Positions 7,661 to 52,650 of a stretch of 61,285 nt of DNA are shown here, in pieces; the stretch's first letter is position 1, and each line of letters starts with the position of its first letter. The DNA lies in the NCBI RefSeq assembly GCF_030684315.1, contig NC_081387.1:11118822-11180106 (forward strand), read 5' to 3'. The translations under genes and the position numbers were made by a program. This stretch comes from Stegostoma tigrinum. Taxonomy: Eukaryota. The notes below the pieces were generated by a model that was not told the origin of the DNA, searched no databases, and saw only the letters and a program-made list of their open reading frames with translations.

Positions 7661-9105
7661 TGGAGTTTAATTCAGATAAATGCAAGGTTGCATTTTGGTA
7701 AGACAAACCAGGACAGAACGTACACAGATAATCTTTGGGCCCTGGGGAGTGTTGTTGAAGAGATACTTAGGGGTGCAGGTACACAGTGCCTTGAAATTAG
7801 TGTCACACATAGATGGGTGATGAAGAAGGTATTTGGCTTCATTAGTCAGAGCATTGAGTATACTGGCAGATGAGGTTAATCCAGGTAAGTGTGCACTTTG
7901 GGGGGTCAAATGTTAAGGAAGAGTATATAGTCAATGGCAGGACCCTGAGCAGCATTGTTATACAGAGGAATCTTGAGGTTCAAGACCATAGCTTCATGAA
8001 AGTGGCCATGCAGGTACATTGGGTGGGAAAGAAGGCGTATGGCATGCTTGCCTTTATTAGTCAGGGAACTGCGTACAAGAGTCAGGTTGTCATTTTGCAG
8101 CTTTATAAGACTTTGGTTAAGCCACACTTAAAGCATTCAATTTTGGTCACGACATTACAGGAAGAATGTGGAAGCTTTGGAGAGGATGAAGAAGAGGTTT
8201 ACCAGGATGCTGCCTGGATTAGAGGGTATGAGCTAGAAGGAGAGGCGAGAAAAACTCGGGTTTCTCTGGAGTGACGGAGCTTGAGGGAAGACGTGATAGA
8301 AGTCTGTAAAATTATAAGCAGCAGAGATAGGATTGACGGTCAGAATCTTTTTGTCAGACTGGAAATATCTAATACTAGTGGGCATGCATTTAAGGTGAGA
8401 CGGGGAAAGTTCAAAGGAGATGTCAGGGGCACGTTTTTCACACAGAGAGTGGCAGAAGTCTGGAACATGCTGACAGGTGTGGTGGTGGAGGCAGATACGA
8501 TAGGTTCATTTAAGGGCCTTTTAGATAAGAACATGAATATGCACGGAATGGAACGATAGCGACCAAGACCAGGCTGAAGGGATTGGTTTCATTTGGCACC
8601 ATGGGTCTGTGCTGCACAGTTCTGTATTCTGTATTCTATTGGAGTTGGGACATCACGTTAGGGATGAACAAGACATTGGACATTTGGAGCACTGTATCCA
8701 GTGGTGTTGCATCGCTATAAGAAAGATTTTATGAAACTGGAAAGGGTGAAGTACCAAGACTGGAGGGTGTGATTCATAAGGAGAGTTTGGATAGACTAGG
8801 ACGGTTTTCCCTGGAACATGGGATGCTGAGGTGTGACCTCATGGAGGCTCATAAAATCACGAGAGGCACAGATAAGATGAATAGCCAAGGTCTTTCCCCC
8901 AGGTTAGGGAAGCCCAAAACTAGAGGTTTTACATGAAAGGGGGCAGATTCGAGGGACAAATTTTTCAGACAGAGTGTGGCACACATATGGAATGAACTTC
9001 CAGAGGAAGTGGAACAGGCAGGTACAATTCCAACATTTAAAAAAAATGGACAGTTATATGAATAGGAAAGGCTTAGAGGTATACAGTCCAAACACAGGCA
9101 AATGG
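7660..9105 (+). mobile_element. Cluster of degenerate CR1-like LINE 3' fragments
   Basis: KKAYGMLAFI..LYKTLVKPHL and FFTQRVAEVWNML motifs in ORFs 7870..8274 and 8281..8559. Confidence 0.8.
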
Positions 9106-9281
9106 GTCGCATCATCCTATGACAATTCCGCCATCTGTAATCTGACCCAACTGCGAAAGACATTTTTCCCTCCCCACCCTTATCTGCCTTGCGGAGGCAC
9201 CACTCTCTCTGTGACTCCCTTGTCCGCTCCACACTCCACGCCCAGCCTCACAACGCCGACGCTATTCCCTGCAACCGCAGG
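9105..9281 (+). mobile_element. Short PLE fragment directly upstream of MHC fragment A
   Basis: Matches ~16593-16766 of the intact PLE (atcatcct..ttccgccat..cttgtccgctccacact..ccctgcaaccgcagg). Confidence 0.85.
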
Positions 9282-9895
9282 TGCAGACAGTTCAGGTCAC
9301 CATGTGGTTGAAAGGACATTCAGGTATTGTAGAGGGTGCAGAGAAGAATGACAATGACAATGTCAGAAATATGTGAGTGAATATTATCAGGGAAAGGATT
9401 GGCAGGCTGGGTGTCTCTGGAATAATAAATCCCAAAGGATGGATCAACAGAGATCTTTAAGTGGATAAAACATTTTGATAGAGTGGATGCAGAGCGCGTG
9501 TTTGGTGAAGAAACTCAAGATTACCAACACAAGACAATCACCAAAAATTCCAAAAGGAATTCAAAAGAAACTTCTCCAGCCAAAGAATGGGGAGAATGTG
9601 AAAGTTGGTGCTACAGGAAGCCTGACTTGTTCAAATGTATTTAAGTGGAAATTAGAAAGGAATAGCAAGTGTCAATGACAGATTTAGATCAGGAAGGATC
9701 AGGATAAAAGTGAGGATATACTGATTGGACCAAATGACCTGGATGTATGCAGTATATCCTGTATAACACACATTTTTCTTTACTTTCTTGCTCTCTGTCT
9801 CTGTCTCCCTGCCTCCCCTCTCTCTTTGTGTTGGTCTCTCTCCCTCCTTTTTTTTTCTGTCATTCGCTCTGGTTTTTTCTCTCTTTATTCGACAG

Positions 9896-11691
9896 ATCTG
9901 AAGTCTCTCTCCCAGGTTCCTGTTATCGTTGGGATTGTATTTGGAGTCCTTGGGATCATCGCTCTCACTGCTGGGGCTGTCATCATTTACAAGAAGAAAT
10001 GTAAGGGTTTGTGTTAAAATTGCAGCCTCTCTCTGGGGTCTCAGCATGTTGGAGAGCCAGAAGGGAGATGGCCATAAAATAGTGAAGGAACATTGTAAGC
10101 AGTTTTGGGTCCAATGTCTGAGAAAGGATGTGCTGCCCTTGGGAATCCAGAGGAGGTTTACAAGAATGATCCCTGGGTTGAAGGGTTTGTCAAATGAGGA
10201 GTGGGTGAGAACTCTGGGTCTGTGTTTCCTGGAGTTTTGAAGGTCGGGGGTGAATCTCATTGAAACTTACAGATTACTGAGAGGCCTGGATAGAGTGGAT
10301 GTGGAGAAGATGTTTCCATGAGCAGGAGAGACAAGGACCAAAGGGGCCAGTATAGTGTAAGAAGGGACAATCCTTTAGAACTGAGGAGGAATTTCCTCAG
10401 CCAGACAGTGGTGATTCTTTGGAAACCCATTGTTGCAGGAGGGTGTGGAGGCCAAGACACTAAGCGTCCTTAAGACAGGGATAGTTAGGTATTTAATTGG
10501 TAAGCGGATGAAGGGTTATGCAGAAAAGGCAGGTGAATGGGTTTGAGGAATACATCAACCACAATTGAATGATGGAGCAAGCCCGATGTACCAAATAGCC
10601 TAAATCTGCTGCAGTATCTTCTGGTCCTCGGTTATTTGTTTGGGTTAGGAGGGTGTGCAAGGAATCTCTGTGTTTAGGAGTCGGTCTTTGTGTTAGCAAT
10701 GGCTCAGGCTGTGGGGAGAGGGCCTCCATTTTTTGAAGGAGGGTCTGCAATGGTGCCCTGCTTCTCAGGATAATGTGGAAGGTCTCAGGGTTCGGACTCT
10801 CACGTTATGAACGTAACATCAGATATTTCAGATTGGGGCTGGCCCTCAGTTAAGTGTTGGGCATCAGCAGATCAGGGCAATGTGGGCATGAGGGGCTGAA
10901 TCTAGATGGGAGTGAGAGTCTCCAGCTTTTCTTCTGATTTTCTCTCAGTCTCTCGACACTCACTGAACGTTCCTTGATTTACAGGAGTGAGGAGCAACTA
11001 CAATCGCGTAAACAGTGAGCCGACAGTGCACATATCTCTGTTACTGTTTGACTAACTCATTTCTGTTTCAGACAAAGATCCATAAAATGCTGGAGATCTG
11101 AAACACAAAAAGAACAGAAATTACTAAAGAAACTCCACAGTTCTGGCAGCATCTATCACGAAAAAAATGTTAACATTTTGAGTCCTTTGGAGTTCTGTTG
11201 GGAGTGTCACTGGACCCAAAGCATTAATTGTGCTTTCTCTCTGCAGATGATGTCTCAGGTGTTGAGTTTCTCCAGTAATGTCAGTTTTTGTTGTTTGTCT
11301 GGTCTAGTCTTGACTGGTGTGGTCTGTTTGTCTTTCATTCTTCTCTCGCTCTCTCATTTCTCCTCAGGTGCTCTCTCCCTCTCTCTCGTGCGTTCTCTTT
11401 ATGACTTTCATTTGCCTCCCCTCATACTCTCTATCTCTCATTTCTCCTGCTGTTGAACTGTCTCTTTTATTTGTCTCTCTCATGCTTTCTCTGTCAATTC
11501 TACGATTCATGCCATCTCCCGCACTCCCTCTCTCTTGTTTCTCTCTCCTGCACTCTGTCATTCTTCCTCTCATGTCTGATGTCTCCATCATATTTTCTCT
11601 TGCTGTGATAATGAACAGTATTTAATGCCTCTCTTTCCATTAACAGCTTCTGACGAAAGGTCATCTTGTCACAGTTCAACCACTACCTGAG
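9896..11691 (+). pseudogene. Orphan 3' half of an MHC class I gene (A): TM exon 9896-10000, cytoplasmic exons 10985-11014 and 11647-11691
   Basis: TM DLKSLSQVPVIVGIVFGVLGIIALTAGAVIIYKKK; tail VRSNYNRVN/TSDERSSCHSSTTT*; canonical AG/GT sites; paralogous to 33731-35558; TM-to-tail splice makes T|GA stop; no alpha3 exon found upstream. Confidence 0.8.
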
Positions 11692-12579
11692 GTATGATTG
11701 GGGTTGGTCAATGTTGGGAGCAGATCATTATAATTGGGATATTGGAGCTGGTTTTAATTATAAATCTGAGTGTGGACTCTGAGCTCAGTGTCTTTCTCTC
11801 TCATCATCACTAAAGACCAGCTTCCGTACTGACCTTGTAGAAATGGTTGCTGCTGTAAGGGTGTCAACCTCGAGATAGCTTTGAGCGGTGGGGTTTGGGC
11901 TTAGAGAAACAACCATAAACATCTCATCCTGGATGTGGCCTTCTGTCACCTGCTCAACTTTCTCAAGTAAGTCAATATTCTGTAAGATCTTGCTGCAGTT
12001 GGCTCCTGGAGTTTGGTGTTGCTCTTCCAGGATTCTGAATCACCGAATGTTTGCAGAATGCAGTGTGGTGGGTAGGGCCTGGATCTGATGGAGAACTCGC
12101 AGCAGTTCAGGAGACCAGACTGTGAGCAGTTTTCGCATCTCATAGGGAGTGCAGAGGAGGCAGACAACAGTGAAATGTAGACATCAAGGGTTAAATCGCA
12201 CAGAGATTTCAGAAAAAAACTGGGGTTGTGTTCCCTGAAATGTAGAAGGTTAAGGGCTGACTAAATGGAGGTTTTCAAGAAATTAAGCGAGGGGAACTAT
12301 TTCCACTGGTTAGGGTGTGTAGTTTCAGACTAGATTCAGTGTAATTAGAGCCAGGCCAATCCAGAGTGAAACTTGGAAACTTCGACACACACAAGGTGGG
12401 AAATGGTTAGAATGCTCTTCCTCAATAGGAAATTAATGCAAAATAAACATTACAGATTTAAAGTCAGTAAAACTCATAATTAAGGGACATGTGGAAGACC
12501 GGCAAATAGATTGAGACGACAAACCATCTATGATCTCCTTGAATAGTAGAACATGGTAGAACAACTTTGGTGTTTTTGT

Positions 12580-12950
12580 GCACCAGTGGATATTCATCGT
12601 GTTTCAGGTGTGGGTCTGATGTGTTTTGCTGATGGTTTAGGAATGGGTCACAGGGAGTTTGCTGATATTTGGGGAGGGGGTCACAGGGGGTTTGGCAGTG
12701 AGTTAGAGGGATTTTGCTGGTGTTTGGGGAGTGGGTCACGGGGTTTTATTTGTGGTTTAGGGAGTGGTTAACAGGAGTTTGCTGGTGTTTAGGGAGTGGG
12801 TCACAGGGATTTTGCTGGCATTTCGGGAGTGGGTCACAAGGTGTTTGCTGGTGCTTGGGGAGTGGGAGAGAGGGATTTTGCTGGTATTTGGGGAATGGAT
12901 CACAGGAATTTTGCTGGTGGTTTACGAGTGGGTCATGAGTTTTGCTTGTA
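12580..12950. repeat. ~33-bp minisatellite in last intron of A (gggagtgggtcacagggattttgctggtgttta)
   Basis: About 10 degenerate units; a shorter related array lies at 38083-38200 in gene B. Confidence 0.8.
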
Positions 12951-15813: not shown

Positions 15814-17610
15814 CAGTCCCTGTACACCTGCATTCCGCATGGAGATGGCCTCAAGGCCCTCCGCTTCTTCCTGTCCCGCAGGCCCGACCAGGCCCCCTCC
15901 ACCGACACTCTCATCCGCCTAGCGGAACTCGTCCTCACACTCAACAACTTCTCTTTTGACTCCTCCCACTTCCTACAGACTAAGGGGGTGGCCATGGGCA
16001 CCCGCATGGGCCCCAGCTATGCCTGCCTCTTTGTAGGTTACGTGGAACAGTCCATCTTCCGCACCTACACAGGCCCCAAACCCCACCTCTTCCTCTGGTA
16101 CATTGATGACTGTATCGGCGCCGCCTCTTGCTCCCCAGAGGAGCTCGAACAGTTCATCCACTTCACCAACACCTTCCACCCCAACCTTGAGTTCACCTGG
16201 GCCATCTCCAGCACATCCCTCGCCTTCCTGGACCTCTCAGTCTCCATCTCAGGCAACCAGCTTGTAACTGATGTCCATTTCAAGCCCACCGACTCCCACA
16301 GCTACCTAGAATACACCTCCTCCCACCCACCCTCCTGCAAAAATTCCATCCCCTATTCCCAATTCCTCCGCCTCCGCCGCATCTGCTCCCACGATAAGAC
16401 ATTCCACTCCCGCACATCCCAGATGTCCAAGTTCTTTAAGGACCGCAACTTCCCCCCCACGGTGATTGAGAACGCCCTTGACCGCGTCTCCCGCATTTCC
16501 CGCGACACATCCCTCACACCCCGCCCCCGCCACAACCGCCCCAAGAGGATCCCCCTCGTTCTCACACACCACCCTACCAACCTCCGGATACAACGCATTA
16601 TCCTCCGACACTTCCGCCATTTACAATCCGACCCCACCACCCAAGACATTTTTCCATCCCCACCCCTGTCTGCTTTCCGGAGAGACCACTCTCTCCGTGA
16701 CTCCCTTGTTCGCTCCACACTGCCCTCCAACCCCACCACACCCGGCACCTTCCCCTGCAACCGCAGGAAATGCTACACTTGTCCCCACACCTCCTCCCTC
16801 ACCCCCATCCCAGGCCCCAAGATGACATTCCACATTAAGCAGAGGTTCACCTGCACATCTGCCAATGTGGTATACTGCATCCACTGTACCCGGTGCGGCT
16901 TTCTCTACATTGGGGAAACCAAGCGGAGGCTTGGGGACCGCTTTGCAGAACACCTCCGCTCAGTTCGCAACAAACAACTGCACCTCCCAGTCGCATACCA
17001 TTTCCACTCCCCCTCCCATTCTCTTGATGACATGTCCATCATGGGCCTCCTGCACTGCCACAATGATGCCACCCGAAGGTTGCAGGAACAGCAACTCATA
17101 TTCCGCCTGGGAACCCTGCAGCCATATGGTATCAATGTGGACTTCACCAGTTTCAAAATCTCCCCTTCCCCCACTGCATCCCTAAACCAGCCCAGTTCAT
17201 CCCCTCCCCCCACTGCACCACACAACCAGCCCAGCTCTTCCCCCCCACCCACTGCATCCCAAAACCAGTCCAACCTGTCTCTGCCTCCCTAACCGGTTCT
17301 TCCTCTCACCCATCCCTTCCTCCCACCCCAAGCCGCACCCCCAGCTACCTACTAACCTCATCCCACCTGCTTGACCTGTCCGTCTTCCCTGGACTGACCT
17401 ATCCCCTCCCTACCTCCCCACCCACACCTTCTCCACCTATCTTCTTTACTCTCCATCTTCGGTCCGCCTCCCCCTCTCTCCCTATTTATTCCAGTTCCCT
17501 CCCCCCATCCCCCTCTCTGATGAAGGGTCTAGGCCCGAAACGTCAGCTTTTGTGCTCCTGAGATGCTGCTTGGCCTGCTGTGTTCATCCAGCCTCACATT
17601 TTATTATCTT
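15814..17610 (+). mobile_element. Young 5'-truncated Neptune-type Penelope element; open frame for partial RT, Cys linker and GIY-YIG EN (stop at 17292)
   Basis: QSLYT, GVAMGTRMGPSYACLF, YIDD, CNRRKCYTC, NVVYCIHCTRCGFLYIGETKRRLGDRFAEH; TSD AGCATCTCAG at 15804-15813 and 17611-17620. Confidence 0.95.
17517..17547 (+). ncRNA. Minimal hammerhead ribozyme motif in the PLE terminus
   Basis: CUGAUGA-A-GGGUC-UA-GGCCC-GAAA-CGUC; minimal hammerheads are an established feature of PLE termini. Confidence 0.7.
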
Positions 17611-23014: not shown

Positions 23015-23063
23015 ATGATCAGACTGTTAGTGCTCGGGCTTCTGTGTGGAGAGCTCTCTGCCG
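23015..23063 (+). CDS. Gene B exon 1, signal peptide MIRLLVLGLLCGELSA
   Basis: ATG 130 bp after the second CCAAT box; hydrophobic; phase-1 donor G|GTGGGT; in frame with alpha1. Confidence 0.88.
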
Positions 23064-26000
23064 GTGGGTAACTGGGGGGCAATGCCAGGCAGGGTCCAGG
23101 TGCATTAGTCCTCAGTCAGTCAGCAATGGGATGTTGGGGTCAGTACTAGTCTGGGTCCTGGTGCATTAGTCCTCAGTCAGAGAGCAATGGGATGTGGGGG
23201 GCAGTACCAGGCTGCGTCCTGGTGCATTAGTCCTCAGTCAGTCAGTAATGGGATGTTGGGGTCAGTACCAGGCTGCGTCCTGGTGCATTAGTCCTCAGTC
23301 AGTCAGCAATGGGATGTTGGGGTCAGTACCAGGCTGGGTCCTGGTGCATTAGTCCTCAGTCAACGGGGTAAGAGGATGTGGCGGGGGGGGGGGGGGTGCG
23401 CGGTGGCGGTAGTGCCTGGTTAGGTACGATGACTTTAACACTCAATCATGTTACTGTTAGGATAAAAAAGTGTGGAGCTGGATGAACACATCTTCGTAGG
23501 TGCTGCTTGGCCTGCTGTGTTCATCCAGCTCCACACTTTTTTAAAATCTCGGATTCTCCAACATCTGCAGTTCCCATTATCTCTGATACTGTTAGAATAG
23601 TTGACCCTTGAGAGTTTGTACAACCATGGGTAGCTCTGTTTCAAGGTACTATTATGTTTCACTTTAAATTTTGGAGCAGAATGCCCTATTTTGTTTAAGC
23701 AGGTACGGGTCACTTTATAGGACAGGTATATTTCCTACATCCATGTTTGTGAGCATTTCTCCTGCACTAATAAATCGGAACTGATTAGAATGTTTCCGTC
23801 TCTGATGGTTTTGAATATTTGAATAATACGCAATTCTTTGACCTCTTACACGCTCAGTAAATAAGGTAGTCAGGAAGATTTCAACTCTGAGATAATGGGA
23901 ATTGCCGATGCTGGAGAATCCAAGATAACAAAGTGTGCAGCTGGATGAACACAGCAGGCCAAGCAGCATCTCAGGAGCACAAAAGCTGATTTTTCGGGCC
24001 GAGACCCTTACGGAAACGTCAGCTTTTGTGCACCTAAGATGCTGCTTGGCCTGCTGTGTTCATCCAGCCCGACACTTTGTTACCTTAGATTTCAGCTCTG
24101 TATTCTTTATCCCTTTGCATGGGAATCACCATTTTGTAGAGTGCAACTTAGTTGTGACTGTTGATTATACTATTGAAGTAAATAACCAAATATACTGTTG
24201 CAACCACAGCACATACAGCTGGAATTGGAATACAACATTTGGAGCTATTGCAATCAAAAAAGACACATTATTAATCAGGTTTCACAGTATTAAGAAAATT
24301 CAAGGGAGTGAATACATATTTTTACCTGGGACCATGAACAGATGTGGTTAAAAATGACAGCTCACCACCACACTCTCGAGGAAATTCGGGATGGGCAGAA
24401 AATGCTGCCCTAAACAGTGATGCCCACATGCTATGAATGAAGAAAATAAACTGTTTTTGGGTGTTCCATTATGTGTGATATTGCTGTGGAGATGGGTGGA
24501 GCTCAGTGGGACTCCTTATTTTGAGTTTAGCTTCCTGAATTTAGTTAGGGCTCAGTCAGCCGGCAAGTATAATGCAATGTTTGGAAAAGCACAGAGAGAC
24601 CCTAAAGAATGAAGCTGGAAACACTCAGAAGGCCAGTCAGTGGAAATAGTTCGTCAACACTGACGGGAGACTGAGGTGTTCGAACTTTTAAGGCAGCGGC
24701 AGAGCAAAGGTGGAGATGTGATAGAGGTGAAGGCCAGAACAGATAAAATAACAGAAGGTCTCATAGTGCAACATCCAGAAAGGGTATGCAGTTTTAAGTG
24801 GCTTATGTAGGTCAGTTTTTAGCCACTGTTAATCTCCAGCATGGTGATAGTGTGGAATTAGTAATGCCACTGAATGTCAAGATGGATGGTTAGACTCTAT
24901 ATTGTTTGAGGGTTTTGTGGTGGTCATTGCCTGTGAATTGTGTGGTGTTGCTTGGCACATATCAGCCCAATCCTGAATCTTGTCCAGGTCTTTCTTAATT
25001 TGAACTTGGACTGCTTAATGTAGATGATTCGGACTTGGGGATCCAAGCATAATGTGTCAAAGCTTGCAAATGACACTAAGTTGAGTGGTGGAGAAAAGTG
25101 TGCAGAGGACACTGAAAGTCTGCAGAAGGACATGGATCAGTTAAGTGAGTGGGCATGGGTCTGGTAGATGGAGTACTATGTTGATAAATGTGAGATCATC
25201 CATTTTGGTAGCAATAACAGCAAAATGGAATATTATTGAAGTGATGAAAAATATACTGCAACATACTGCTGTGCAGAGGGAGCTGGGTGTCTTTGTGCAT
25301 GAATCACAAAGTGCTGGTTTGCGGGTGCAGTGGGTAATTAGGAAGGCAAATGGAACATTGTCCTTCATTGCTAGAGGAATGGAGTTCAAAAGTGGGGAGG
25401 CTATGCTGCAGCTTTACAGGGTGCTGGTGAGGCCAGGAGTGCTGTGTATTGTTGTGGTCACCATACTTGAGGAAGGATGGACTGGCACTGGAGGGGTACA
25501 GAGGCAATTCATAAGGTTGATTCTGATGTTGAAAGGTTTGGCTTATGTTGAGAGATTGAGTAGACTAGGACTATCCTCACTGGAATTTTAAAGCATGAGG
25601 GGGGACACCTTTATAGGAATGTATAATATAATGAAGGGAATAGATCAGATAGAATCAGGGAGGTTGTTCCCACTGGTTGAACTAGGGAGCCTCAAATAGT
25701 GAGACCAAATTTAGGACTGAGTTGGGGAGGAACTCCTTCACCAAAAGGTTGTGAATCTATGGAATGCCCTGCCCCATGAAGCAGTTGAGGCCACCTAATT
25801 GAATGTTTTTAAGGCAAAGATAGATTTTTGAACAGTGAAGGAATTGAAGGTAGTGGTGAGCGTGTGGGTAAGTGAGTCTATGAAAAGATCAGCCATGGGC
25901 TTATTGAATGGAGGAGCAGGCTCAAGGGGCCAGATGGCTCCTGTTTCTTATGTTCTTATGTTGATTATCAGCGGAGTTGTGAATGGTACGGAATATTGTG

Positions 26001-29000
26001 CAGTTATCTGCCAACATCCCTGTGTCTGACCTTATGATGGAGGGAGAATCAGTATTGAAACACTAGAAGAGGGTGCAATGACTGCATAGAGGCTGGTATC
26101 CCGTCACCATGTCACCTTTTATTTATTTGTGCACAGTACACTGGCTGTGGCCAGCCAGCCTGGAGTCAGTCCCCTGAACTGAGGAGATCCTCATTTCCTG
26201 ATTATATTAGTAGGTCAGGGCTTTCCTAAGTGGCCCAGCTGAGCAACACCGAACAATGATCTTTTAGTCAACAAGGTCAACCTGGTTCCAGTGGTTGAGT
26301 CTGGAGAAAACTCTGCAGTAAGATCCTGGAGATGAGCTGACCGACCTCCTAAAACCACCATCATCTTCCTTTGTCCCACTTAAGACTTTAGCCAGTGGAG
26401 AGATTTCTAATGATTTCCCAGTGCCTGTGGCTTTGCTTGGTCAAATGTATGATGCTGTACTTGGTGAAATGTGGCTTTGAATTCAAGAGCTGCCACTTTC
26501 ACCTCATCTGTGGAGTTCAGCTGTTTTTGTCTTTGTTTTCTTGGTTGGACTGTAATGAGATGAGAAGCTGTGCTTCAGCGAAAAGCAAACCAAATGTTAT
26601 TAAACAATTTATTGCTGACCTTGATAACTCCCTCAGCAACCCCATTAATCATCTTGCTGATGACCAAGAGTAGCCTGATGTGATGGGAACTTTGTATTGG
26701 ATTTAACCTGCCTTTTGTGCACAGGACAATACCTGGCCATTGCTGAGCCAATGTCAGTGTTGTCCCTATATTAGGACAGCTTAGCAAAGATGTAGGGAAT
26801 TTGGGAGTACAAGTCTTTCGTACTATTACAAGAAAATTGTCAGGATTCATAGCCTTTGCAGCATCCAGTGTCTTCAGTCATTTCTTGATGTCACAAAGAC
26901 TGAATGGAATTGGCTGAAGACAGGAATCTGTGATGTGGACACCATAGGAGGAGAGGACAGTGGATCATCCACTTGACCCTTCCGGCTGAAGGTGTTTACA
27001 GCAGCTTCAGCTTTGTCGTTCAGCTGGGCCATGGGGATATTTCTGGAGCTTCATCCTGTTGTGAATTGCTTGCGACCACCACACTCACAACTTGGTGAAA
27101 GACGATTACAGAGCTGGATGTCAGACCTGTCGATTGTGGTATGGCTTGATTTTCTCCATTGCGAGTTGGTACCACTGTTTGACATGCAAAAGTCCTGTAG
27201 CTTCACCACATTGACAGCTTACTTTTAGGTCTGCCAGGTGCTGCTCCTGGCTTGCCTTCCTGCGCTCTTCATTGAACTGGCGTTATGATCCTAAATGATA
27301 TTACTTCGACACAACTCAATTCTCAGAATGACATTTATTAAGATAGTTTTTTTATGTGCCGATTGTCCGTGGGACATTCACAGAGGTTACGAATTTCCTT
27401 ATACAGAATTGCGGTTTTTAACATAATTTGTTGAAAAAAATTAAGGTATCCAATTATAGAAGACAGTTAGAAAAATATCAAGATAACAGCAAAACCAAGT
27501 TTCAACCTGTTTCCCAACACTACCCAATGACATGAAACACCGAAACAGAAAATAGGAGCAGGAGAGGATATAGGTTTAAGGTGAGAGGGCAAAGATTTAA
27601 AAGGGACCCAAGGGACATCTTTTTAATGCAGAGGGTGGTGCTAGAGGATCTGTTGGAGGCTGGTACAATTGCAGCATTTAAAAAAACATCTGGATGGGTA
27701 TATGAATAGGAAGGGTTTTGCGGGCTCTGGGTCAAATGCTGACAAAGGTATAAATCTAGTCACAGTGGGCGTGGATGAGTTGGACTGAAGGGTCTGTTTC
27801 TGAGCTGTGTATCTCAATGGCACTGTGACTGTGAGCAGACCATTTGGCCCTTCAAGCCTGCACCACAATTCAAGTCGTTCCTGACTGATCATGCAATTTC
27901 AGGACTCCATTCCCGCTTTCTCTCCATACCCCTCGATCCACATCCAGCTCACTCTTGAGCATATCGAGCAAACTGGCTCCAACAGTTTTGAGTCTTAGAG
28001 AATTCCAAGGGTTCACAGCTCACAGCCAGTCCCACTCTCCTGTCTTTGTCGCTTTACTCTGCAATTTCCATCTCTTCAAGTAATTATCCAATATTTGATT
28101 GAAAGTCTCAATTGAATCTTCCACCATCACACTCCCAATCACTGCATCCTAATCTTCCAAAGGGTCAGTATTCAAATCTCTGCCTTTCCTGCTACATTCT
28201 CTCAAAGATTTGCTTGGTGTACAGAATTCTGAGGCCAGTGTGCCGTGACGATTTACGATCAGTCTGTGTGGAACCTCAGAGCAGCTGTGTGGTATTCTGA
28301 TGGATATTAATGATCCAGATCTGTACAGACAACATACTACAATTTGCAAACAATGCAAATCTTGCAGCATTGTAAACGATGACGAGGATCCTGACAGACT
28401 TCAAGAGGAGACGGAAATGTGGGTAGAACGGGCCAACAAGTGGCAACTCAAATTTAATGTGCAAAAATGCCAATTTATACTTTTTGACAGGAAGAAAAAA
28501 GAAGTCAAAAGAGGGGTAATATTCCAAAGCCTATGTGGAGACCTGGAGCTATATGTGTAAAAATAATAAGAGCCAGGCAGGCTGGTTCAGAAAGCGGAAG
28601 GTGGGAACCTGACCTCCTGAATACAGGCGTAGAGTATAAAGTGAGGTGTGAGTGGAAACGTGTGACCGGTCTTTTGAGCTGCATACCCTATTGGATTTCC
28701 TCTCTGTGTTTCAGAAACTCACTCTCTTCGGTATTTCCTGAGTGCTATGACTCCAGTTTCTGGTTACCCGCAGTTTGTCATTGTTGGATATGTGGACGGG
28801 GTCCAGTTTATCAAGTACGACGGCGATCAGAAGGTGTTGATTCCTCGGGAACAGTGGATGGTGGAGAGCGAGGGACGTAAGGCCTGGTTGCGGAAACTAT
28901 ACCTTGCCCAGTTGCAGGAGCTGGATTTCAGAGCCTTTGTTCCCAGGATCATGGAACGGATCAACCAGACAAGTGGTGAGTCCATACCACCCCACTGCTC

Positions 29001-33687: not shown

Positions 33688-33726
<39 letters not shown>

Positions 33727-35557
33727 ACAGACCCGACGTCTCTCTCCCAGGTTCCTGTCATTGTTGGGGTTGTATTTGGAGTCCTTGGGATCATTGCTGT
33801 CGCTGTTGGGGTTGTCATCATTTACAAGAAGAAAGGTAAGGGTTTGTGTTGAAAATTGCAGCTTCTCTCTGGGATCTCAGGGAGTTGCAGAGCCAGAAGG
33901 GAGTTGGCCAGAATAAAGCGAAGGAACATTGTGAGCACTTTTGGGCCCCATGTCTAAGAAAGGATGTGCTGCCCTTGGGAATCCAGAAGAGGTTTACAAG
34001 AATGATCCCTGGGTTGAAGGGTTTGTCAAATGAGGAGTTGGTGAGAACTCTGGGTCTGTGTTTCCTGGAGTTTTGAAGGTCGGGGGTGAATCTCATTGAA
34101 ACTTACAGATTACTGAGAGGCCTGGATAGAGTGGATGTGGAGATTTTTCCATGAGCAGGAGAGACTAGGACCAAAGGGGCCAGTATAGTGTGAGAAGGGA
34201 CAATCCTTTATAATTGAGGAGGAACTTCCTCAGCCAGACAATGGTGATTCTGTGGAAATCCATTGTTGCTGGAGGGTGTGGAGGCCAAGACACTGAACAT
34301 CCTTAAGACGGATAGTTAGATATTTGATTGGTAAGGGGATCAAGGGTTATAGGGGAAGGCAGGGGAATGGGGTTGAGAAACATGTCAGTCACGATTGAAT
34401 GGTGGAGCATTCCTGATGGGCTGAATGGCCTAATTCTGCTGCAGCGTCTCATGGTCCCCGGCTGTTTGCTTGGGTTCGGAGGGTGGGCAAGGAACCTCTG
34501 TGTTTATGACTCAGTCTCTGGGTTAGCAATGGCTGAGGCTGTGGGGAGAGGGCCTCAGTTTGTGAAGGAGGGTCTGTGACAGTGCCATTTCTCAGGGTAA
34601 GGTGGAAGGTCTCAGGGTTCAGAGTCTCAGGTTGTGAATGTGAAGTCAGATATTTCAGATTGTGTTTGGCTCTCAGTTCACTGTTGGGCTTCAGCAGCTC
34701 AGAGAGAAGTGGACACAAGGGGCTGAGTCTAATTGGGAGTGAGGGTCTCCAACATTTCTTCTGATTTTCTGACAGTCTCTCGACACTCACCAAACATTCC
34801 TTGATTTACAGGAGGAGAGAAGAAGAAGTACAGCCCCACAAACGGTAAGCTGATAATTCACCTCTCGGCATCTGTGTTTGTGTACGATGAGCTGCTTTTC
34901 TGTTTCAAACAAAAAATCTGCAAATGCTGGAGATCTGAAACAGAAAAGAAAACATAAATTGCTGAGGCAACTAATTAGGTTTGTCAGCATCTGTGGAGAG
35001 AAAACAAGAAACATTTTGAGTCCAGTGACATTTCGTTCTGGGAGTTCTGTTGAGGGGTCACTGAATCCAAAGTGTTAACTCTGCTGTCTGTCTCCTCAGA
35101 TGCTGCCAGACATAGTGTGTTTCTCAAGCAGTTTCTGTTTCTGTTCTCTGTCTGATCTGTCTGTCTGTCTGTCTGTCATTCTTCTCTTGGTCTCGTGTGC
35201 TCTCTGTCTCTCGTTTAGCCCTCTCATACAATCTCTCTTTCGTACATTTCTCCCTCTCACACTCTTTACGTCTCTGGCTCTCATTTCTCTCAATTGTTTG
35301 TTCTGTCTCTCATTTTTCCTCTCGTGCTTTCTCTCTTATTTGTTTCTCTCTATCATGCTCTTTCTGTCGCTCTCTCATTTTGTTCTGTTTCTCTCGTTTC
35401 TTGCTGTCTATTATTGTCTCACCCTCTTGTTTCTCGCTGCCTCTGTTACATATTCTCTGTCTCATTCTTTCTGTTGCTGTGATAATGAATGATTTTTAAT
35501 CTTGTGTTTCCCTTAACAGCTTCTGATGAAACAAGCTCCAGTTCTGTCATTTCCTGA
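23015..35557 (+). CDS. MHC class I heavy chain (gene B), complete 7-exon CDS, 340 aa, probably non-classical
   Basis: Exons 23015-23063, 28715-28975, 29529-29801, 31279-31542, 33731-33835, 34812-34844, 35520-35557; all phase-1 GT-AG introns; 1023 nt, open frame. Confidence 0.93.
23090..23361. repeat. 60-bp minisatellite (~4.5 copies) at start of gene B intron 1
   Basis: Unit ggtgcattagtcctcagtcagtcagcaatgggatgttggggtcagtaccaggctgggtcct. Confidence 0.9.
23461..23586. mobile_element. Short palindromic PLE-terminus insertion
   Basis: Arms aaaaaagtgtggagctggatgaacac / gtgttcatccagctccacactttttt; TSD TACTGTTAG. Confidence 0.75.
23888..24090. mobile_element. Palindromic PLE-terminus insertion
   Basis: Inverted arms of the same terminal sequence. 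Confidence 0.75.
25030..25960 (+). mobile_element. Degenerate CR1-like LINE 3' fragment
   Basis: IRKANGTLSFIARGMEFKS..LQLYRVLVRP in ORF 25145..25591. Confidence 0.8.
26300..27290 (-). mobile_element. Degenerate CR1/L2-like LINE RT fragment
   Basis: MNPDNFLVIVRKTCTPKF resembles the GPDNIP..LK.CAPEL motif. Confidence 0.55.
28715..28975 (+). CDS. Gene B exon 2, alpha1 domain
   Basis: THSLRYFLSAMTPVSGYPQFVIVGYVDGVQFIKYD..PREQWM..MERINQTS; NQT glycosylation site. Confidence 0.95.
29529..29801 (+). CDS. Gene B exon 3, alpha2 domain
   Basis: GIYTYQMMTGCDL..WVSPVPWGESIKNRWD..YLEKECGTWLRKYLEYG; Cys pair present. Confidence 0.95.
31279..31542 (+). CDS. Gene B exon 4, alpha3 Ig C1-set domain
   Basis: LSCLVTGFYPQAIEVTLWRDG..LPNHDRTYQ..YSCRVEHSGL. 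Confidence 0.95.
31834..32065. mobile_element. Palindromic PLE-terminus insertion (older subfamily), shared with D at 50830-51057
   Basis: Inverted arms; TSD ATAGAATATGA. Confidence 0.75.
32305..32525. mobile_element. Palindromic PLE-terminus insertion specific to gene B
   Basis: TSD TTTACTGTAAT; absent at the paralogous site ~50590. Confidence 0.75.
32560..32990 (+). mobile_element. Probable Gypsy/LTR-retrotransposon pol remnant in intron 4 (copy at 50130-50570, minus)
   Basis: FLDTLPVTADNISPWAQKDPVLVKLK resembles the RNase H-integrase linker of Gypsy pol. Confidence 0.5.
33731..33835 (+). CDS. Gene B exon 5, connecting peptide and TM
   Basis: DPTSLSQVPVIVGVVFGVLGIIAVAVGVVIIYKKK; (CT)n tract before the acceptor. 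Confidence 0.92.
34812..34844 (+). CDS. Gene B exon 6, cytoplasmic (GGEKKKYSPTN)
   Basis: 33-nt exon, tttacag|..|gtaag, conserved tail Tyr; paralogous to 10985-11014. Confidence 0.8.
35520..35557 (+). CDS. Gene B exon 7, cytoplasmic (ASDETSSSSVIS*)
   Basis: taacag acceptor; SD motif of class I tails; TGA G|gtatg. Confidence 0.8.
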
Positions 35558-35654: not shown

Positions 35655-35692
<38 letters not shown>

Positions 35693-46691: not shown

Positions 46692-47149
46692 TGAAAGGGA
46701 ACGTGGACATATGCTGAAAATCCGGGATGAGGCCAATGAAATAGAAATGTCTCATGAACTCTGTAAACTGCAGCACACACTGATGTGATATTCTTCTCTT
46801 TATTACATGTCATCTGACCCTGGGCAGTGCAGTTCAGCTCTGACTATCTAACTATTGAGAAGGCTATCACTCTGGAAGCTGCAAATCACTCTCTCCAAAA
46901 AATACTTGCAAGAAAACTACAGAGGAGGGCTCAGATGGACTGCAACCAATAAGTGGCCTAGTCCCAGAAGAAAATGAGAGAATGTCAATCTAAATGAGAG
47001 CCATGTCAACAGTGCACATCTCGGCCATGGGTGTTATTTTGTTCTTATAGGGTCATAGAGGTATACAGCATGGACACAAGCCCTTCAGCCCAACTTCTAA
47101 ATGCTGGCCAGGCTTCCGAAACTGAACTCGTCCCATTTGGAAATAATAG

Positions 47150-49995
47150 GAAATGCCGATGCTGAAGGTGTAGAGCTGGATGAATGCAGCGGGCCAAGTG
47201 GCATCAGAGGAGCAAGAAGGCTGGCGTTTCAGGTCTGGACCCTTCTTCAGAAATGGAGGAGGGGAAGGGGATTCTGAAATAAATAAGAGAGCGAGGGGAG
47301 GCAGATGGAAAATGGATAAAAGTGCAGATAGGTGGAGAGGAGATGGACAGGTCAAGGAGGCGGGGATAGAGCCAGTAAATGTGAGTGTAGGTAGGCAGTT
47401 AGGGTGGGGGTTGGTCAGTCCAGGGAAGACAGACAGGTCAAGGAGGCAGGGATGAGACTGGTAGGTAGGAGATGGGGATGGCGGTTGAGGTGGGAGGAGT
47501 GGATAGGTGGGAGAAAGAATGGAATGGTTAGCACGCAGGGACGAGGTGGGTTGATTTTGGCTTGCAGTAGGGGAAGGGGGGATTTTCAAGCTTGTGAAGT
47601 CCACATTGATCCCATTGGACTGCAGGGTTCCCAAGCGGAATATGAGATGCTGTTCTTGCCACTTTCGGGTGGCATCATTGTGGCACTTCTGGAGGCCCAG
47701 GAAGGACATGTCGTCCAGGGTGTGGGAGTGGCAGTTGAAGTGGTACGCAGTTGTTTGTCGTTAACCGAGCGCAGGTGTTCCACAACGCGGTCTCCGAGCC
47801 TCCGCTTGGTTTCCCTGAGGTAGAGGAGGCCACATCTGGAACAGCGGATACAATATACCACATTAGCAGATGTGCAGATGAACATCTGTTTGATGTGGAA
47901 GGTTTTCTTGGGGACTGGAATGGGGGTAAGCGGGGAGCTGTAGGGGCAGGTGTAGCTGGGCTGCTTCAGGGATGCAGTGGGGGGAGGGGACGAGCTGGGC
48001 TGGTTTTGGGATGCAGTGGGGGAGTGGGAGATTTTGAAGCTTGTGAAGTCCAGATTGATACCATTGGGCTGTAGGGTTCCCAAGCGGAATATGAGTTACT
48101 GTTCCCACAACCTTTGGGTGGCATCATTGTGGCACTGCAGGAGGCCCATGATGGACATGTCATCTAAGGAATGGGAGGGGAAGTTAAAATGGTTCGCGAC
48201 TGGGAAGTGCAGTTGTTTATTGCAAACTGAGCGGAGGTGTTCTGCAAAGTGATCCCCTAGCATCTGCTTGGTTTCCCCAATGTAGAGGAAGCCACACCGG
48301 GTACAGTGGATACAGTGTACCACATTGGCAGATGTGCAGGTGAACATCTGCTTAATATGGAAGGTTATCTTGGAGCCTGGGATGGGGGTGAGGGACGAGG
48401 TGTGGGGGCAAGTGTAGCACTTCCTGCAGTTGCAGGGGAATGTGCCGGGTGTGATGAGGTTGGAGTGGAGTGTGGAGCGGACAAGGGAGTCACAGAGAGA
48501 GTGGTCTCTCCAGAAGGCAGACAAAGGTGGGGATGGAAAAATGGCTTGGGTGGTGGGGTCAGATTGTAGATGGTGGAAGTGTCGGAGGATGATGCATTGT
48601 ATCCGGAGGTTGGTGGGGTGGTATGTGAGAATGAGGGGGATCCTCTTGGCAGGGTTATTGCAGAGGCAGGGTGTGAGGGGTATGTTGTGGGAAATGCGGG
48701 AGACGCGGTCAAGGGCATTCTCGACCAATGCGGGGGGGAGGTTGCGATCCTTGAAGAACGTGGACATCTGGAATGTGCTGGAGTGAATGCCTCATCTTGG
48801 GAGCAGATGCGACGGAGGTGAAGGAATTGGGAATAGGGGATGGAATTTTTGCAGGAGGGTGGGTGGGAGGAGGTGTATTCTTGGTAGCTGTGGGAGTCGG
48901 TGGGCTTGAAATGGACATCAGTTACAAGCTGGTTGCCTGAGATGGAGACTGAGAGGTCCAGGAAGGTGAGGGATGTGTTGGAGATGGCCCAGGTGAACTT
49001 GAGGTTGGGGTGGAAGGTGTTGGTGAAGTGGATGAACTGTTCGAGCTCCTCTTGGGAGCAAGAGGCGGCGCCAATACAGTCATCAATGTACCAGAGGAAG
49101 AGGTGGGGTTTGGGGCCTGTGTAGGTGCGGAAGAGGGACTGTTCTACGTAACCTACAAAGAGGCAGGCATAGCTTGGGCCCATGCGGATACCCATGTCCA
49201 CCCCCTTTGTTTGTAGGAAGTGGGAGGAAGTGAAAGAGAAGTTGTTGAGGGTGAGGACGAGTTCGGCTAGGCGGATGAGGGTTTCAGTGGAGGGGGACTG
49301 GTCAGGCCTGCAGGACAGGAAGAAGCGGAGGTCCTTGAGGCCATCTGCATGCGGAATACAGGTGTATAGGGACTGGACGTCCAAGGTGAAAATGAGGTGT
49401 TGGGGGCCAGGGAATTGGAAGTTCTGGAGGAGGTGGAGGGCGTGGGTGGTGTCACGGACGTAGGTAGGGAGTTCCTGGGCCAAGGGAGAGAAAATGGAGT
49501 CCAGATAGGTGGAGATGAGTTCGGTAGTGCAGTAGCAGGCTGAAATAATGGGTCGACCAGGGCAGGCAGGTTTGTGGATTTTGGGAAGGAGATAGAAGCG
49601 GGTGGTGTGGGGGTGGGGAACAATGAGGTTGGAGGCTGTGAGTGGGAGGTCCCCTGAGGTGATGAGGTCATGGATGGTATTGCAGATGATGGTTTGGTGC
49701 TCGGGGATGGGGTCATGATCAAGGGGGTGGTAGGAGGAGGTGTCAGAGAGTTGACGTTTGGCCTCGGCGATGTAGAGGTCAGTGCGCCATACTATCACTG
49801 CGCCACCCTTGTCTGTGGGTTTGATGGTGAGGTTAGGGTTGGAGCGGAGGGAGCGGAGGGCTGCCCGTTCTGCAGGGGAGAGGTTCAAGTGGGTGAGAGG
49901 GGTACAAAGGTTGAGGTGGTTAATGTCTCGACAGCAGTTGGAGATGAAGAGGTCGTGGGAGGGTAGGAGGCTGGGGGTGGGGTCCAGGAGGAGGT
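47150..49995 (-). mobile_element. Tandem PLE: near-complete RT/EN copy (47955-49995, frameshift at ~48790) plus a second 3' copy
   Basis: IKPTDKGGAVIVW, FYLLPKIHK, GRPIIS, LDVQSLYT, YIDD; EN in ORF 48096..48767. Confidence 0.95.
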
Positions 49996-52650
49996 TTCCT
50001 GTCTCTTCTTGAGAATGTTCGGTGCTGTGGCCCATAACAAAAATGGGAATTTAATTCTGAAACTCTGTTTAAATAAAACAATCTTCATGGTTATGGGAGA
50101 ATACACAGTTTGGCGCTGAGTGATGCTGTAGGGTCCAGAAAAGCTTCAATCCTGGTTGTGACGGCACATTTGTTTCCCCCGTCACCACCAGCGGTTTTAG
50201 TTTCACCAAGACGGGATCTTTCTGTGCCCACAGGCTGATATTGTCAGCAGTGACTGGAAGGGTGTCCAGGAAGTTTACAACCAGAATGGACTCTTCCAGG
50301 GGAAGCACACCACCACTGGGGTATCTATCAGCGGGAGGCAGCTCAACGCTTCTGTACCACGTTAAACCAATATTCCTGGCCCTGGGATGGGAGTGAAATG
50401 GCAGCAGGAATGCCAATGCCGGCCACATGCCTCCTCAGAGCAAGAGAAACAGTTTACTTCAGGCACGCACTGTTTTCTCTTACTGCCACTGTCCTTTGAC
50501 TGAGGAGACCTTCTGAATCCCCTGTTACAATTCTGTTTCTTTTTTTCTGACCACCCCAAACAGCTGTTTTTGTTTGAATTTACATAATTACAATAAAGTT
50601 GTTCACAATGATTAGGAGCTGAAGTTCTCAAATCTTGTTTGTCTTTTTTTGATTCCAACCCAACTCCACGGGATTGAGGAGATTTTGTAACCGGCTCTTA
50701 AAGACTGATGGGTATAATAATAAATCAAAGGGTCAAGCAACAGCTAAATCTCCTGTTTACATCTGTCAGCCAGGGCTCCCTGATTAGCCCAGGTTAACAA
50801 CCCCACTCAGGAAACTCATATTCTATGAGGAACAAAAACAGAAGTTGCTGGAAAAGCTCAGCAGGTCTGGCAGCATCTGTGAGGAATAAATCAGAGTTAA
50901 GGTTTCGGGTCCAGTGGCACTTCCTCAGAATGTCCTCACTGGACGTGAAACCTTAACTCTGATTTATTTTCTTCACAGATGCTGCCAGGCTTGCTGAGGT
51001 TTTCCGGCAACTTCTATTTTTGTTCCTGATTTCCGCAGTACTTTCAGTTTTTCTTTCATATTCTCTGAGATCTACCTGGTCCTGATTCCAATCACTACAG
51101 GATTGGAAGGATAGAGCGGGTTCTGTCACACTAACACCGGATGTTATACCATGTACCTTAATTTTATAGCGTTCCTGGATATTTAAGATGCTGGAGTAGC
51201 ATCATCCTCCAGTATAAACTAGGCAAGGTCCTACTGTAACACCCCTAGATTCAGCGTCTTTATCACTGTTCTCTACCAATGGTATGAGCACTGTGCAACA
51301 CTTACAGTTAATATTAGCCCTCTCTCTATCCTCGGGTGTCCTGGTCAAGCAGCTCAGCAATGACCCTCCCTCCCACGATCCTGGTCTGAGTCTGTGTCCT
51401 CTCTAACCCCTCCTCACTCGCTTGCCCGCCCGCCCACCTGCCTGCCCCCCCTTTATTCACCCACCCACCTCCCCCCCTTGCTTGCACACCCACACCCCCC
51501 ACTCGCTCGCCTGCCCTACCCCATCAGTTGCCCACCCACCCTGACTCGACTGCCCTCCTCCCCCACCGCCCGCATTCACCTGTCAGCTCCCTCACTCAAC
51601 CTTCCCTCCCTCTCGCTTGTCCGTCTGCCCTCTCCCTTCACTTGCTCACTTTTTCTGCTCTTACTTGCCCGCCTGCCCCCTCACTCGCTCGCCCGCCTCT
51701 CCTCCCCTTCACTTGACCTCCCCTTCCTCTGGCTCACCCGCCTGTCCTGCCCCTCACTCGCCATCCCCTTCCTCTGGCTCACCCGTCTGCCGTCCCCCTT
51801 CACTTGCTTGCCTTCCCCTCACTTGCTTGCTTGCCCTCTCTCCCCTCTCACTCATCCACACTCCCACCCTTCCCCTTCACTCATCGACTCTCCATCCCTC
51901 CCCACCCCCTCACTCACCCACACGCCTTCACTCCCACCCATCCAGCTCCCTCTGTCCGTAATCCAAGTACTTCCTCAGCCACTCGACACACACCACCTCC
52001 AGGTAATGCTTCCACTGCTGATTATTCACACACTCATGGTCGCACCTGTTTTTGGCGCTCTCCCCCCAAAGGACTGGTGTACCCACACCATGTGATCCTT
52101 ATCGAAGCTCAGCAAATCTTGTCCATCCCATCCATACTGATTGAACCCAATTGTCGTCCCATCACTCCTTAGGTCAAAACCAGTCATCATTTGGTAGGTA
52201 TTGATCCCTGTCCATCAAAAATACAAGTTGCCAATCAGACACACTGAACCTTCACCCACTACAAGCACAGGCAATCAGGTTCAGGCACAACAGATAACTG
52301 AGCCCATTGCCACCAGTATCTGACTCCCAGATCCTAGGCCAATCCTGGCCTCCCCCCACTCCTGTAGGATGAGTCCCCGGGAAGGGCCAGCAAAGCCCTG
52401 GTGGGTCCGGCACATGAGCTTTGGAATACGACCTTGGAAATACAGCTACTGCTTCTGTGCGAGCATCATCTTCTGCTCTTAGGAATCCTGTCCCTTGCTC
52501 TCCACCATCCACTGCTTCCCGGGGATCGGTTGCTTCCAATCACTGTCCTACTTAATAAACTGGACCTTGTCCACATATCCGTCAAGCACAGAGTCCAAAA
52601 AGCCAGGAATTGGAGACACGCCGGTCAGGAAATACCAGAGAGAGTGGAGG
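49996..52650 (-). pseudogene. MHC class I pseudogene 5' half (D): alpha1 52391-52650, alpha2 ~51936-52207, alpha3 missing, intron-4 homology 49996-51332
   Basis: alpha1 LHSLWYFLTGVSPIPGF..GYVDKVQFIK*..QWMVESKG with 3 stops and no GT donor; alpha2 GINTYQMMTGFDL (Cys>Phe), 1-nt deletion after VW, ..YLEVVCVEWLRKYLDYG. Confidence 0.92.
51360..51935. repeat. C/T-rich low-complexity tract
   Basis: Degenerate ctcac/cttgcccgcctgccc repeats; G/A-rich on the D sense strand. Confidence 0.8.

Follow-up and report, generated by a model that had tools for sequence, protein, structure and literature searches.

Nested transposon remnants point to a 39-kb inversion in a zebra shark MHC class I cluster, possibly bridged by Penelope-like element cDNA

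The occurrence of what look like two halves of one MHC class I gene on opposite strands, each abutting Penelope-like element (PLE) sequence, raises the question of how the halves were parted and what part the elements played in it. The locus, analysed here in a window of 61,285 nucleotides (the whole stretch of DNA examined), is a non-classical MHC class I cluster of the zebra shark (Stegostoma tigrinum). Its intact gene B (23015..35557, plus strand) is identical to XP_059495504.1, has XP_048472677.1 as an orthologue and comprises exons for the leader (23015-23063), alpha-1 (28715-28975), alpha-2 (29529-29801), alpha-3 (31279-31542) and TM (33731-33835), followed by two last exons (34812-34844 and 35520-35557), all on the plus strand. 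Besides B and the two half-genes, named D and A, the only MHC piece in the window is a leader exon (1892..1940, minus strand), which we took as the gene C of the preliminary description; its translation is the leader of XP_059495393.1, its promoter region (2157-1879) is 81.6% alike that of B, and the remainder of C falls outside the window, to its left. The B and C proteins are identical at 142 of 146 C-terminal residues, a likeness by which the paralogues of this cluster appear to exchange sequence.

Classical MHC class Ia chains are characterized by eight conserved residues that bind the peptide termini. Compared with 6LUP, five of the eight are kept in B and three (Y59, T143 and K146) are replaced, by which B would fall outside classical class Ia. 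In the tree, a clade with support of 99/99 that holds 20 of the 37 rows includes B, C and D as well as AAC60347.1 from nurse shark and AAC60348.1 from horn shark, which we take to be UBA sequences, and leaves 6LUP outside; this grouping suggests that B, C and D belong to the shark UBA lineage (class Ib). UBA is credited to Bartl 1997 in PMC12562908. In being multicopy, and in the separation of B, C, D and these two sequences from 6LUP, the classical nurse shark chain, the locus resembles the elasmobranch non-classical class I UBA cluster (PMC10751288; PMC12562908), from which it differs in the orientation of B, now opposite to that of C, and in having one copy that has been split and has decayed; the genes c4 and rxrb that flank the UBA cluster lie beyond the bounds of the window here.

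Half-gene D (49996..52650, minus strand), delimited by alignment to B, retains an alpha-1 exon with three stops (about 52650-52390), an alpha-2 exon with a frameshift at 52080 (about 52209-51938) and the 5′ part of intron 4. No alpha-3 exon was found in D or elsewhere in the window outside B, and no leader was found in the 8.6 kb of the window upstream of D. Half-gene A (9282..12648, plus strand) carries the 3′ part of intron 4, three exons with open frames and AG/GT sites (TM, 9896-10000; cytoplasmic, 10985-11014 and 11647-11690) and the 3′ flank, and aligns to B 33229-36168 and 37778-38144. As the preliminary description had stated, D follows intron 4 of B exactly to the equivalent of B 33115 (50598->49996 against 32525-33115, 94%), with PLE sequence at 49995, and A, preceded by a PLE fragment that ends at 9281, matches B weakly at its start and strongly further on. 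Identity to B is 96.7% over the last 581 nt of D, 70.2% over A 9282-9470 (against B 33116-33280, 113 matches and 48 mismatches) and 92.5% over A 9471-10545, that is, highest on either side of the D|A break apart from the 70% island at A's start. These first 190 nt of A interrupt the dome of high identity, and the register there is not base-precise.

The complementarity claimed for the two halves held insofar as the parts of B matched by D and by A are separate, whereas a base-precise fit and a whole gene did not emerge: A's start maps to B 33108-33116, so the fit is precise to no better than about 8 bp, and the first 16 nt of A score best elsewhere than at B 33116. A single conversion tract running through the D|A break, considered as proof of one gene, was ruled out by the 70% island after the break. 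The reading of A's start as a LINE remnant was dropped as well; since its direct alignment to LINE is weak (scores 24-25), that reading would rest on a general resemblance to LINE sequences. No intact orthologue of D was present among the 36 proteins in the tree, and a 47-residue piece of D's alpha-2, used as a query, gave as its single candidate (1/1) a 70% zebra shark paralogue, both of which weigh little as evidence; nor did any intact protein come up as the common best match of D's exons and A's tail. From the alignments to B, D and A are likely to be parts of one MHC class I (pseudo)gene that has since been split.

The inversion itself is recorded by an old Penelope-like insertion, X, which lies in two pieces, 9107-9281 (+) and 47956→47140 (−). 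The 5′ half, X5 (9107..9281, plus strand), covers positions 24-194 of the 5940-6990 copy, and the 3′ half with the tail, X3 (47140..47956, minus strand), covers positions 199-997; the two abut, with 4 nt of X lost between them. Private substitutions amount to 21/171 (12.3%) in X5 (fragment 9111-9281, multiple alignment) and 43/396 (10.9%) in X3, by which both halves appear equally old. X is hosted by the remnant of a LINE 3′ tail, of which the 5′ part (8860..9106, plus strand) matches other LINE tails in the window and the 3′ part, including the right copy of the target duplication, lies at 47020..47139 (minus strand). This host rejoins in single-base register, the left match on the 5271->4998 copy ending at 5083 and the right one starting at 5082, and once the empty site is rebuilt, seven further LINE tails can be aligned through it. 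The 8-bp target duplication of X, CAAATGGG, stands at both outer ends (9099-9106 on the left, 47139-47132 on the right); because a common 8-bp word was also found in 135 of 5000 window pairs in a random control, it counts only alongside its position and the LINE register.

From the abutting halves of X, their common target duplication and the rejoining of the LINE, together with the substitution counts, the segment 9282-47956 (38,675 bp) was therefore identified as almost certainly inverted, and inversion with these breakpoints is highly probable: on the left at 9281|9282, where X5 is joined to A, and on the right at about 47956|47957, where the PLE copy Y described below is joined to X3 with a 3-nt ambiguity. 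As expected of a simple inversion, reversing the segment rejoins X5 with X3, the LINE tail with its duplication, and D with A to within about 8 bp. The inversion of about 39 kb parting D from A, as first proposed, is thus borne out by the split X and the LINE register, and undoing it does place B, C and D(+A) all on the minus strand. At the left junction, a 318-letter contig with 0 differences, reaching 72 letters to the left and 246 to the right, was found in both organism-B runs compared (X10 and X12); in both organism-A runs compared, the alignment of a 319-letter contig begins at exactly 9282, with 59 other letters on the left, and this contig may derive from a paralogue. This comparison covered the left junction only, in 4 of the 16 listed runs, none of them among the three bisulfite runs; A-type contig cover at 9527-9800 and a contig of the ancestral junction in organism B were absent among the matches listed and were not used as evidence.

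The stretch from 49995 down to 47140, which the preliminary description had not resolved, consists of two copies, the young Y and the old X3. Y (47957..49995, minus strand; 2,039 bp) is a young Penelope-like copy, 90.7% identical to the copy at 15.8 kb, 5′-truncated, without a 3′ tail or a target duplication and with one frameshift near 48790; it sits whole between half-gene D and X3, overlapping X by 3 nt, and carries 5/171 and 15/396 private substitutions in the regions matching X5 and X3, respectively. The young reference copy (15814..17610, plus strand) encodes RT, a CX4CX2C linker and a CCHH-type GIY-YIG endonuclease, the last C-terminal to RT in the same ORF, retains the 3′ tail and has a 10-bp word repeated at its flanks. 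Pfam RVT_1 matched Y at E=1.9e-6, below Pfam's cut-off, and GIY-YIG matched the 90.7% identical reference copy at E=0.0015, likewise under the cut-off, with the motifs visible in the translation. Both patterns that define the Neptune/Nematis type in PMC8557442, a CX2-5CXXC linker and a pair of cysteines between GIY and YIG, are present, and by ORF layout and motifs the family of Y is probably an EN+ Penelope-like element of this type. The order Y-then-X3 is unlike the partial tandem usual for such elements: Y, which lies upstream, has no 3′ end of its own, and X3, downstream of it, is three times older. The tail is kept in five of the six other copies that reach the ORF end (BLAST), and old internal PLE fragments without a tail also occur in the window (44321-44544). 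No hammerhead family was found by Rfam in 46900-56200, where the five matches were all miRNA-model hairpins below gathering scores.

This arrangement suggests that Y was probably inserted as a cDNA bridge in the same event as the inversion; the fuller reading, in which the inversion, the likely split of the D/A gene and the insertion of Y were all one event, is one to which we give slightly better than even credence. One break would have fallen inside X and the other in the D+A gene, within its intron 4. Reverse transcription would then have been primed inside the PLE RNA by the free 3′ end on the X3 side, through a 3-nt match just beyond the ORF end, and because of this internal priming Y would lack the tail. 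The 2,039-nt cDNA would then have been joined to D's end rather than back to X5, and the leftover ends of X5 and A would have been joined directly, probably aided by the likeness of the break sites (the gene site reads CAGGAA then TGC, and X reads CAGGAAGTGC), with a loss of 4 nt from X and of at most a few from the gene. As in retrotransposition-mediated rearrangement, Y is placed exactly at the right junction without a target duplication; at its 3′ end, where a target-priming signature would be expected, there is a 3-nt overlap only, the normal tail being absent. A single event is supported by Y's position at the junction without duplication or tail, whereas X has a duplication and the other copies mostly have tails. 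The 3-nt overlap and the 6-nt similarity of the break sites are, as such, weak signals, the old tail-less PLE fragments (44321-44544) also speak against a single event, and the order of events is read from one sequence.

Precedents for the separate steps exist in several studies. L1 cDNA intermediates join distal breaks and so produce rearrangements, with one inversion among six sequenced (PMC13526784), and in L1 the reciprocal ends join without an insert (PMC11702581). A PLE protein was shown in vitro to cleave both strands and to begin reverse transcription at an internal position of its RNA (PMC11167929), near the 5′ end of the ORF in that Poseidon-clade element and after the ORF here. In L1 reporter work, long homology promoted rearrangements; there is none at this locus. 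The likeness to L1 retrotransposition-mediated rearrangements (PMC13526784; PMC11702581; PMC7058536) lies in a 5′-truncated copy bridging distant break ends, without target duplication and with an insert-free reciprocal junction, inversions being among the L1 outcomes. The L1 cases are human, from somatic tissue or cell lines, and there the poly(A) and the TT/AAAA cut motif prove priming; here the element is Penelope-like and lacks its normal 3′ end, the material is a reference genome plus contigs of two samples (left junction), and priming can only be inferred.

The mechanism first put forward was ectopic recombination between the inverted PLEs. The two PLE pieces are indeed mutually inverted and share a stretch (9109-9281 / 48595-48423) of 81.6% identity, and ectopic recombination between elements prevails in the Drosophila virilis phylad according to PMC6278893. 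Recombination in the 9105-9281 region is nevertheless rejected because Y is uniformly young across it, while X5 is old along its whole length: the subfamily switch sought at 48400-48600 is absent, the identity of Y to the young 15.8-17.2 kb copy being 92.2, 90.2 and 89.9% before, inside and after the common region. Contrary to NAHR, the left junction runs from PLE to gene intron, and the right breakpoint is a non-homologous join about 462 nt out of register; the partner of X5 is X3, not Y, and X's duplication flanks both. This explanation is hardly credible. An apparent closeness of X5 to Y (85.7% pairwise) fell to 79.5% in the multiple alignment, where other copies were at least as close. The locus shares with inversions by ectopic recombination between transposon copies (Galileo, DAIBAM; PMC6278893, PMC2775673) the inverted transposon pieces at both breakpoints, and differs from them in having no in-register crossover or chimeric copies but one old copy cut in two. 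A misassembly, whether of the right junction or of the interval between the junctions, would fit the facts that the contig comparison covered the left junction only, that one compared sample may be the assembly's source, and that PLE insertions trouble assemblies (PMC8557442). It is very improbable, as the left junction occurs in unbranched contigs of two samples, the joins link non-homologous, old, unique sequences, and a mis-join would not yield base-precise complementary halves with a target duplication.

As the main rival, two steps could have led here, Y inserting normally into intron 4 of D+A and an end-joining inversion following later, with breaks in X and in the 3′ part of Y and the loss by resection of Y's target duplication and of its tail, which amounts to about 370 bp or more. 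Coupled retrotransposition would then be unnecessary, end-joining is a prevalent inversion route in D. melanogaster (PMC6278893), and the short match with the end of X5 would come from a target duplication ending CAGG(AA); yet the deletion must halt within a few bases of A's start although X loses only 4 nt, Y's insertion site must resemble X's break site by chance, and no remnant of Y's tail was found when looked for at the left junction, so we regard this course as rather unlikely. A 6-nt word, AGACAG, occurs both where D ends and where A starts, and taken as a target duplication of Y that has decayed, it would favour the two steps; that reading is not favoured because B continues like D past the word and the organism-A contigs match A from 9282. 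Were the inversion made alone, by microhomology-mediated joining at break sites that when rebuilt both have CAGGAA and a nearby TGC, Y would have had to strike the junction later, to the base, without target duplication and losing its tail, which makes this, too, very improbable. The inversion may instead be real with D and A stemming from different paralogues, either because the gene at the right break had lost its own 3′ half or because later conversion and deletion created the D|A fit. The contrast between A's 70% start and D's 96.7% end, the missing alpha-3 exon, the lack of a common best-match protein and of a D orthologue among the tree proteins, and the local exchange seen between B and C speak for it; it is improbable since the split X demands a partner break, and at that break the ends contributed by D and A map to within about 8 bp in the 2.2-kb intron 4 of B.

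Taken by themselves, an inversion and one dead gene copy are ordinary birth-and-death evolution for a multicopy class Ib cluster. What sets this one apart is that the nested old insertions allow both breakpoints to be reconstructed almost base for base, so that recombination between repeats, the default, is excluded and a retroelement cDNA bridge is indicated; the presence of transposons at either end of an inversion is not in itself proof of ectopic recombination. That a PLE made a fixed germline inversion in one step, its putative EN and RT priming in an older copy of its family from an internal RNA start and the cDNA being joined 39 kb away, is a tentative reading that we hold with less than even confidence, and a search of paper listings found no comparable PLE-made inversion. 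If true, the locus would preserve a natural instance of a PLE priming internally and bridging a rearrangement with its cDNA, and would extend to PLEs and the germline a route so far established, in tumours and cell lines, for human L1. It would also provide a signature that can be counted across shark genomes, namely a young PLE without tail or duplication at one junction and a clean reciprocal junction at the other, and would mean that the very abundant PLEs of sharks directly cause re-orientation and gene loss in MHC clusters.

The self-alignment of the window bore out three observations of the preliminary description: half-gene D (49996-52650, minus strand; alpha-1/alpha-2 and 5′ intron 4) tracks intron 4 of the intact MHC class I gene B to 33115 and gives way at 49995 to a Penelope-like element (PLE), half-gene A (9282-12648, plus strand; 3′ intron 4 and tail exons) begins after PLE sequence that stops at 9281, and the pieces of PLE lie in mutually inverted orientation with one common stretch at about 80% identity. 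From D to 47140, the PLE sequence described as one element actually comprises two copies, Y (49995 to 47957) and X3 (47956 to 47140), both on the minus strand. The fragment 9111-9281, within the left piece X5 (9107-9281, plus strand), corresponds to positions 24-194 of an intact short copy (5940-6990), and 47956 to 47165 to its positions 199-997, the two halves meeting with 4 nt absent between them. Private substitutions (21/171 in X5 and 43/396 in X3) indicated that both are old, while Y carried 5/171 and 15/396 over the same columns. An identical 8-bp word lies just outside each half (9099-9106, plus; 47139-47132, minus). As 135 of 5000 random window pairs had such a common word, it is not rare alone, and its weight comes from its position at both element ends and from the flanks, which are two halves of one LINE tail: against another LINE copy the left flank stops at 5083 and the right flank begins at 5082, and the rebuilt empty site is spanned by alignments of seven further LINE tails (best E=3e-40). 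Since the halves abut, are of similar age, share the word and rejoin a LINE tail, the sequence argues strongly for a single insertion, X, cut in two by a very probably real inversion of 9282-47956 (38,675 bp), with breakpoints other than first proposed. Un-flipping places B, D+A and gene C all on the minus strand, as had been claimed. The PLE copies at 9107, 6967 and 1527 start at almost one internal position (805-814 of the reference), which suggests either a non-autonomous subfamily of roughly 1 kb or a favoured stopping position; an inverted piece, at 1530-1839, adjoins this start.

The proposed split of one MHC class I gene held insofar as D and A adjoin on intron 4 of B, D ending at B 33115 and A starting at B 33108-33116, and failed for a complete gene. 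The partner break would lie in intron 4 of the D/A gene, although the A-start register is weak, being a 36-column match equalled by 1/2000 shuffles, and A's first 16 nt fit best elsewhere than at B 33116. D+A as a complete gene was rejected: the window holds no alpha-3 exon except that of B and no leader for D, whose reading frame is broken by three stops and a frameshift; all three small exons of A are open. A purine-rich low-complexity tract (51340-51935) stands where D would have its alpha-3 exon and roughly 1.7 kb of sequence equivalent to B. D 50576-49996 is 96.7% identical to B 32535-33115 right up to the breakpoint, compared with 75-81% farther upstream and 68-78% in exons, a tract that probably arose by gene conversion between two copies now lying inverted and that ends at the junction. 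The intron-4 stretch before the break (32560-33040; 50560-50070) resembles part of an LTR-retrotransposon pol gene, and a Pfam search of it returned no match.

Y lies whole at the right junction as a 5′-truncated copy of 2,039 bp. It ends within the 39-bp repeats that follow the ORF and lacks the roughly 370-bp tail that BLAST found in five of the six other copies reaching the ORF end; no target duplication surrounds Y, and Y and X3 overlap by 3 nt. The family encodes a reverse transcriptase (RT), a CX4CX2C linker and a GIY-YIG endonuclease that has two cysteines inside it, the RT and GIY-YIG Pfam matches falling under curated cut-offs. These are features of Neptune/Nematis-type PLEs in the available text of PMC8557442, and the family would be of this type as placed by domains and motifs. 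The PLE tail carries a hammerhead-like core, CTGANGA...GAAA (17517-17540, 47140-47280), with no Rfam hammerhead match in 46900-56200, and is also found alone (15166-15346, 23886-24091, 32307-32514, 55833-56050), often in palindromic pairs.

Recombination between the inverted PLEs in their common region, the mechanism first put forward, predicted chimeric copies, and the identity profile shows none: Y matches the young copy at 15.8-17.2 kb (plus strand) at 92.2, 90.2 and 89.9% before, inside and after that region. With Y uniformly young, X5 old along its whole length and the right junction displaced from register by about 462 nt, ectopic recombination was rejected; in the accessible part of PMC6278893, Penelope has no more than an indirect link to virilis-group inversions. 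A single event, to which we give slightly better than an even chance, would instead account without coincidence for a whole Y at the junction, its missing tail and target duplication, the 3-nt overlap and the rebuilt break sites, which are alike over 6-9 nt. The free end of X3 would have primed reverse transcription within a PLE RNA, the resulting cDNA, Y, would have been ligated to D, and X5 to A.

The main rival is that Y inserted first and later end-joining deleted its tail and the target duplication up to A's start. For this order the deletion must halt within a few bases of A's start, and Y's insertion site must by chance resemble X's break, but it stays plausible, if less probable, and a 6-nt word common to the end of D and the start of A counts slightly in its favour. 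The cDNA-bridge route has been demonstrated for L1, whereas bridging by Y is deduced from its sequence. As far as the available texts go, breaks far apart are joined through L1 cDNA intermediates, one of six sequenced events being an inversion (PMC13526784), reciprocal ends are joined without inserts (PMC11702581), and bridges of L1 are found at rearrangements in tumours (PMC7058536). A PLE protein in vitro cuts both strands and starts internally on its template (PMC11167929, in the part available); that PLE, however, belongs to another clade and starts near the ORF start, whereas Y ends after the ORF.

Contigs from four of 16 listed runs were compared over 8500-10300, two from each of two source organisms, here called organism A and organism B; the organism-B runs are samples S4 and S5 of one study, and one may be the assembly source. 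In both organism-B runs a single 318-letter contig spans 9210-9527 with zero differences, at a depth similar to single-copy neighbours, and the unbroken contig suggests that these samples hold no common alternative path into half-gene A. Each organism-A run yielded a 319-letter contig that matches 9282-9536 with 29 differences and has 59 unlike letters on its left; this contig, which may be a paralogue, places the break at 9282. B 33116-33260 is a strongly diverged island, 70% identical to half-gene A, and organism-A contigs are about 89% like the latter; at 9434-9448 half-gene A has five substitutions in 15 bases, where organism A matches gene B. Longer contigs put the two organisms about 6-11% apart, and since the private divergence of Y (3-4%) is similar to half of this distance, the event is, as a rough estimate, probably no older than their split.

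The spliced product of gene B (23015-35557, plus strand, seven exons) is identical to XP_059495504.1 of Stegostoma tigrinum, which identifies the window as a zebra shark MHC class I cluster. The leader exon of gene C (1892-1940, minus strand) encodes the leader of XP_059495393.1, its gene body lying beyond the window's left edge. A tree built on 37 alpha-1/alpha-2 rows grouped B, C and pseudogene D in a 20-row clade (support 99/99) that also holds AAC60347.1 of nurse shark and AAC60348.1 of horn shark, both of which we take to be UBA, and placed the classical chain 6LUP outside it. Gene B retains five of eight classical anchor residues. The placement and anchors fit a multicopy non-classical UBA cluster, as described for elasmobranchs in the available portions of PMC10751288 and PMC12562908. 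Within the tree, B groups with a whale shark protein and C with AAC60347.1. Over the part from alpha-3 onward (31279-35557 in B), B and C (P0013, XP_059495393.1) share 142/146 residues, compared with just 114/177 in alpha-1/alpha-2, and contigs of B-type intron 4 have about 2x single-copy depth; the 3′ halves of B and C thus appear recently homogenised despite their different tree partners. Directly downstream of B, a young LINE (36173-37781, minus strand; long open RT frame, RVT_1 E=2e-34) interrupts a stretch homologous to the 3′ flank of half-gene A (12278|12289). Minisatellites occur at 17981-18718 (51 bp), 23085-23362 (61 bp), 57379-57913 and 12640-12935 (both 33 bp), the 61-bp array beginning right after the gene B leader exon.

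Searches of the literature covered, which takes in few subscription papers, showed neither a description of this locus nor an inversion bridged by a PLE. We hold with high confidence that the inversion is real, while its breakpoints and mechanism differ from the first proposal; the PLE bridge, if true, would be a variant of a route already shown for L1.
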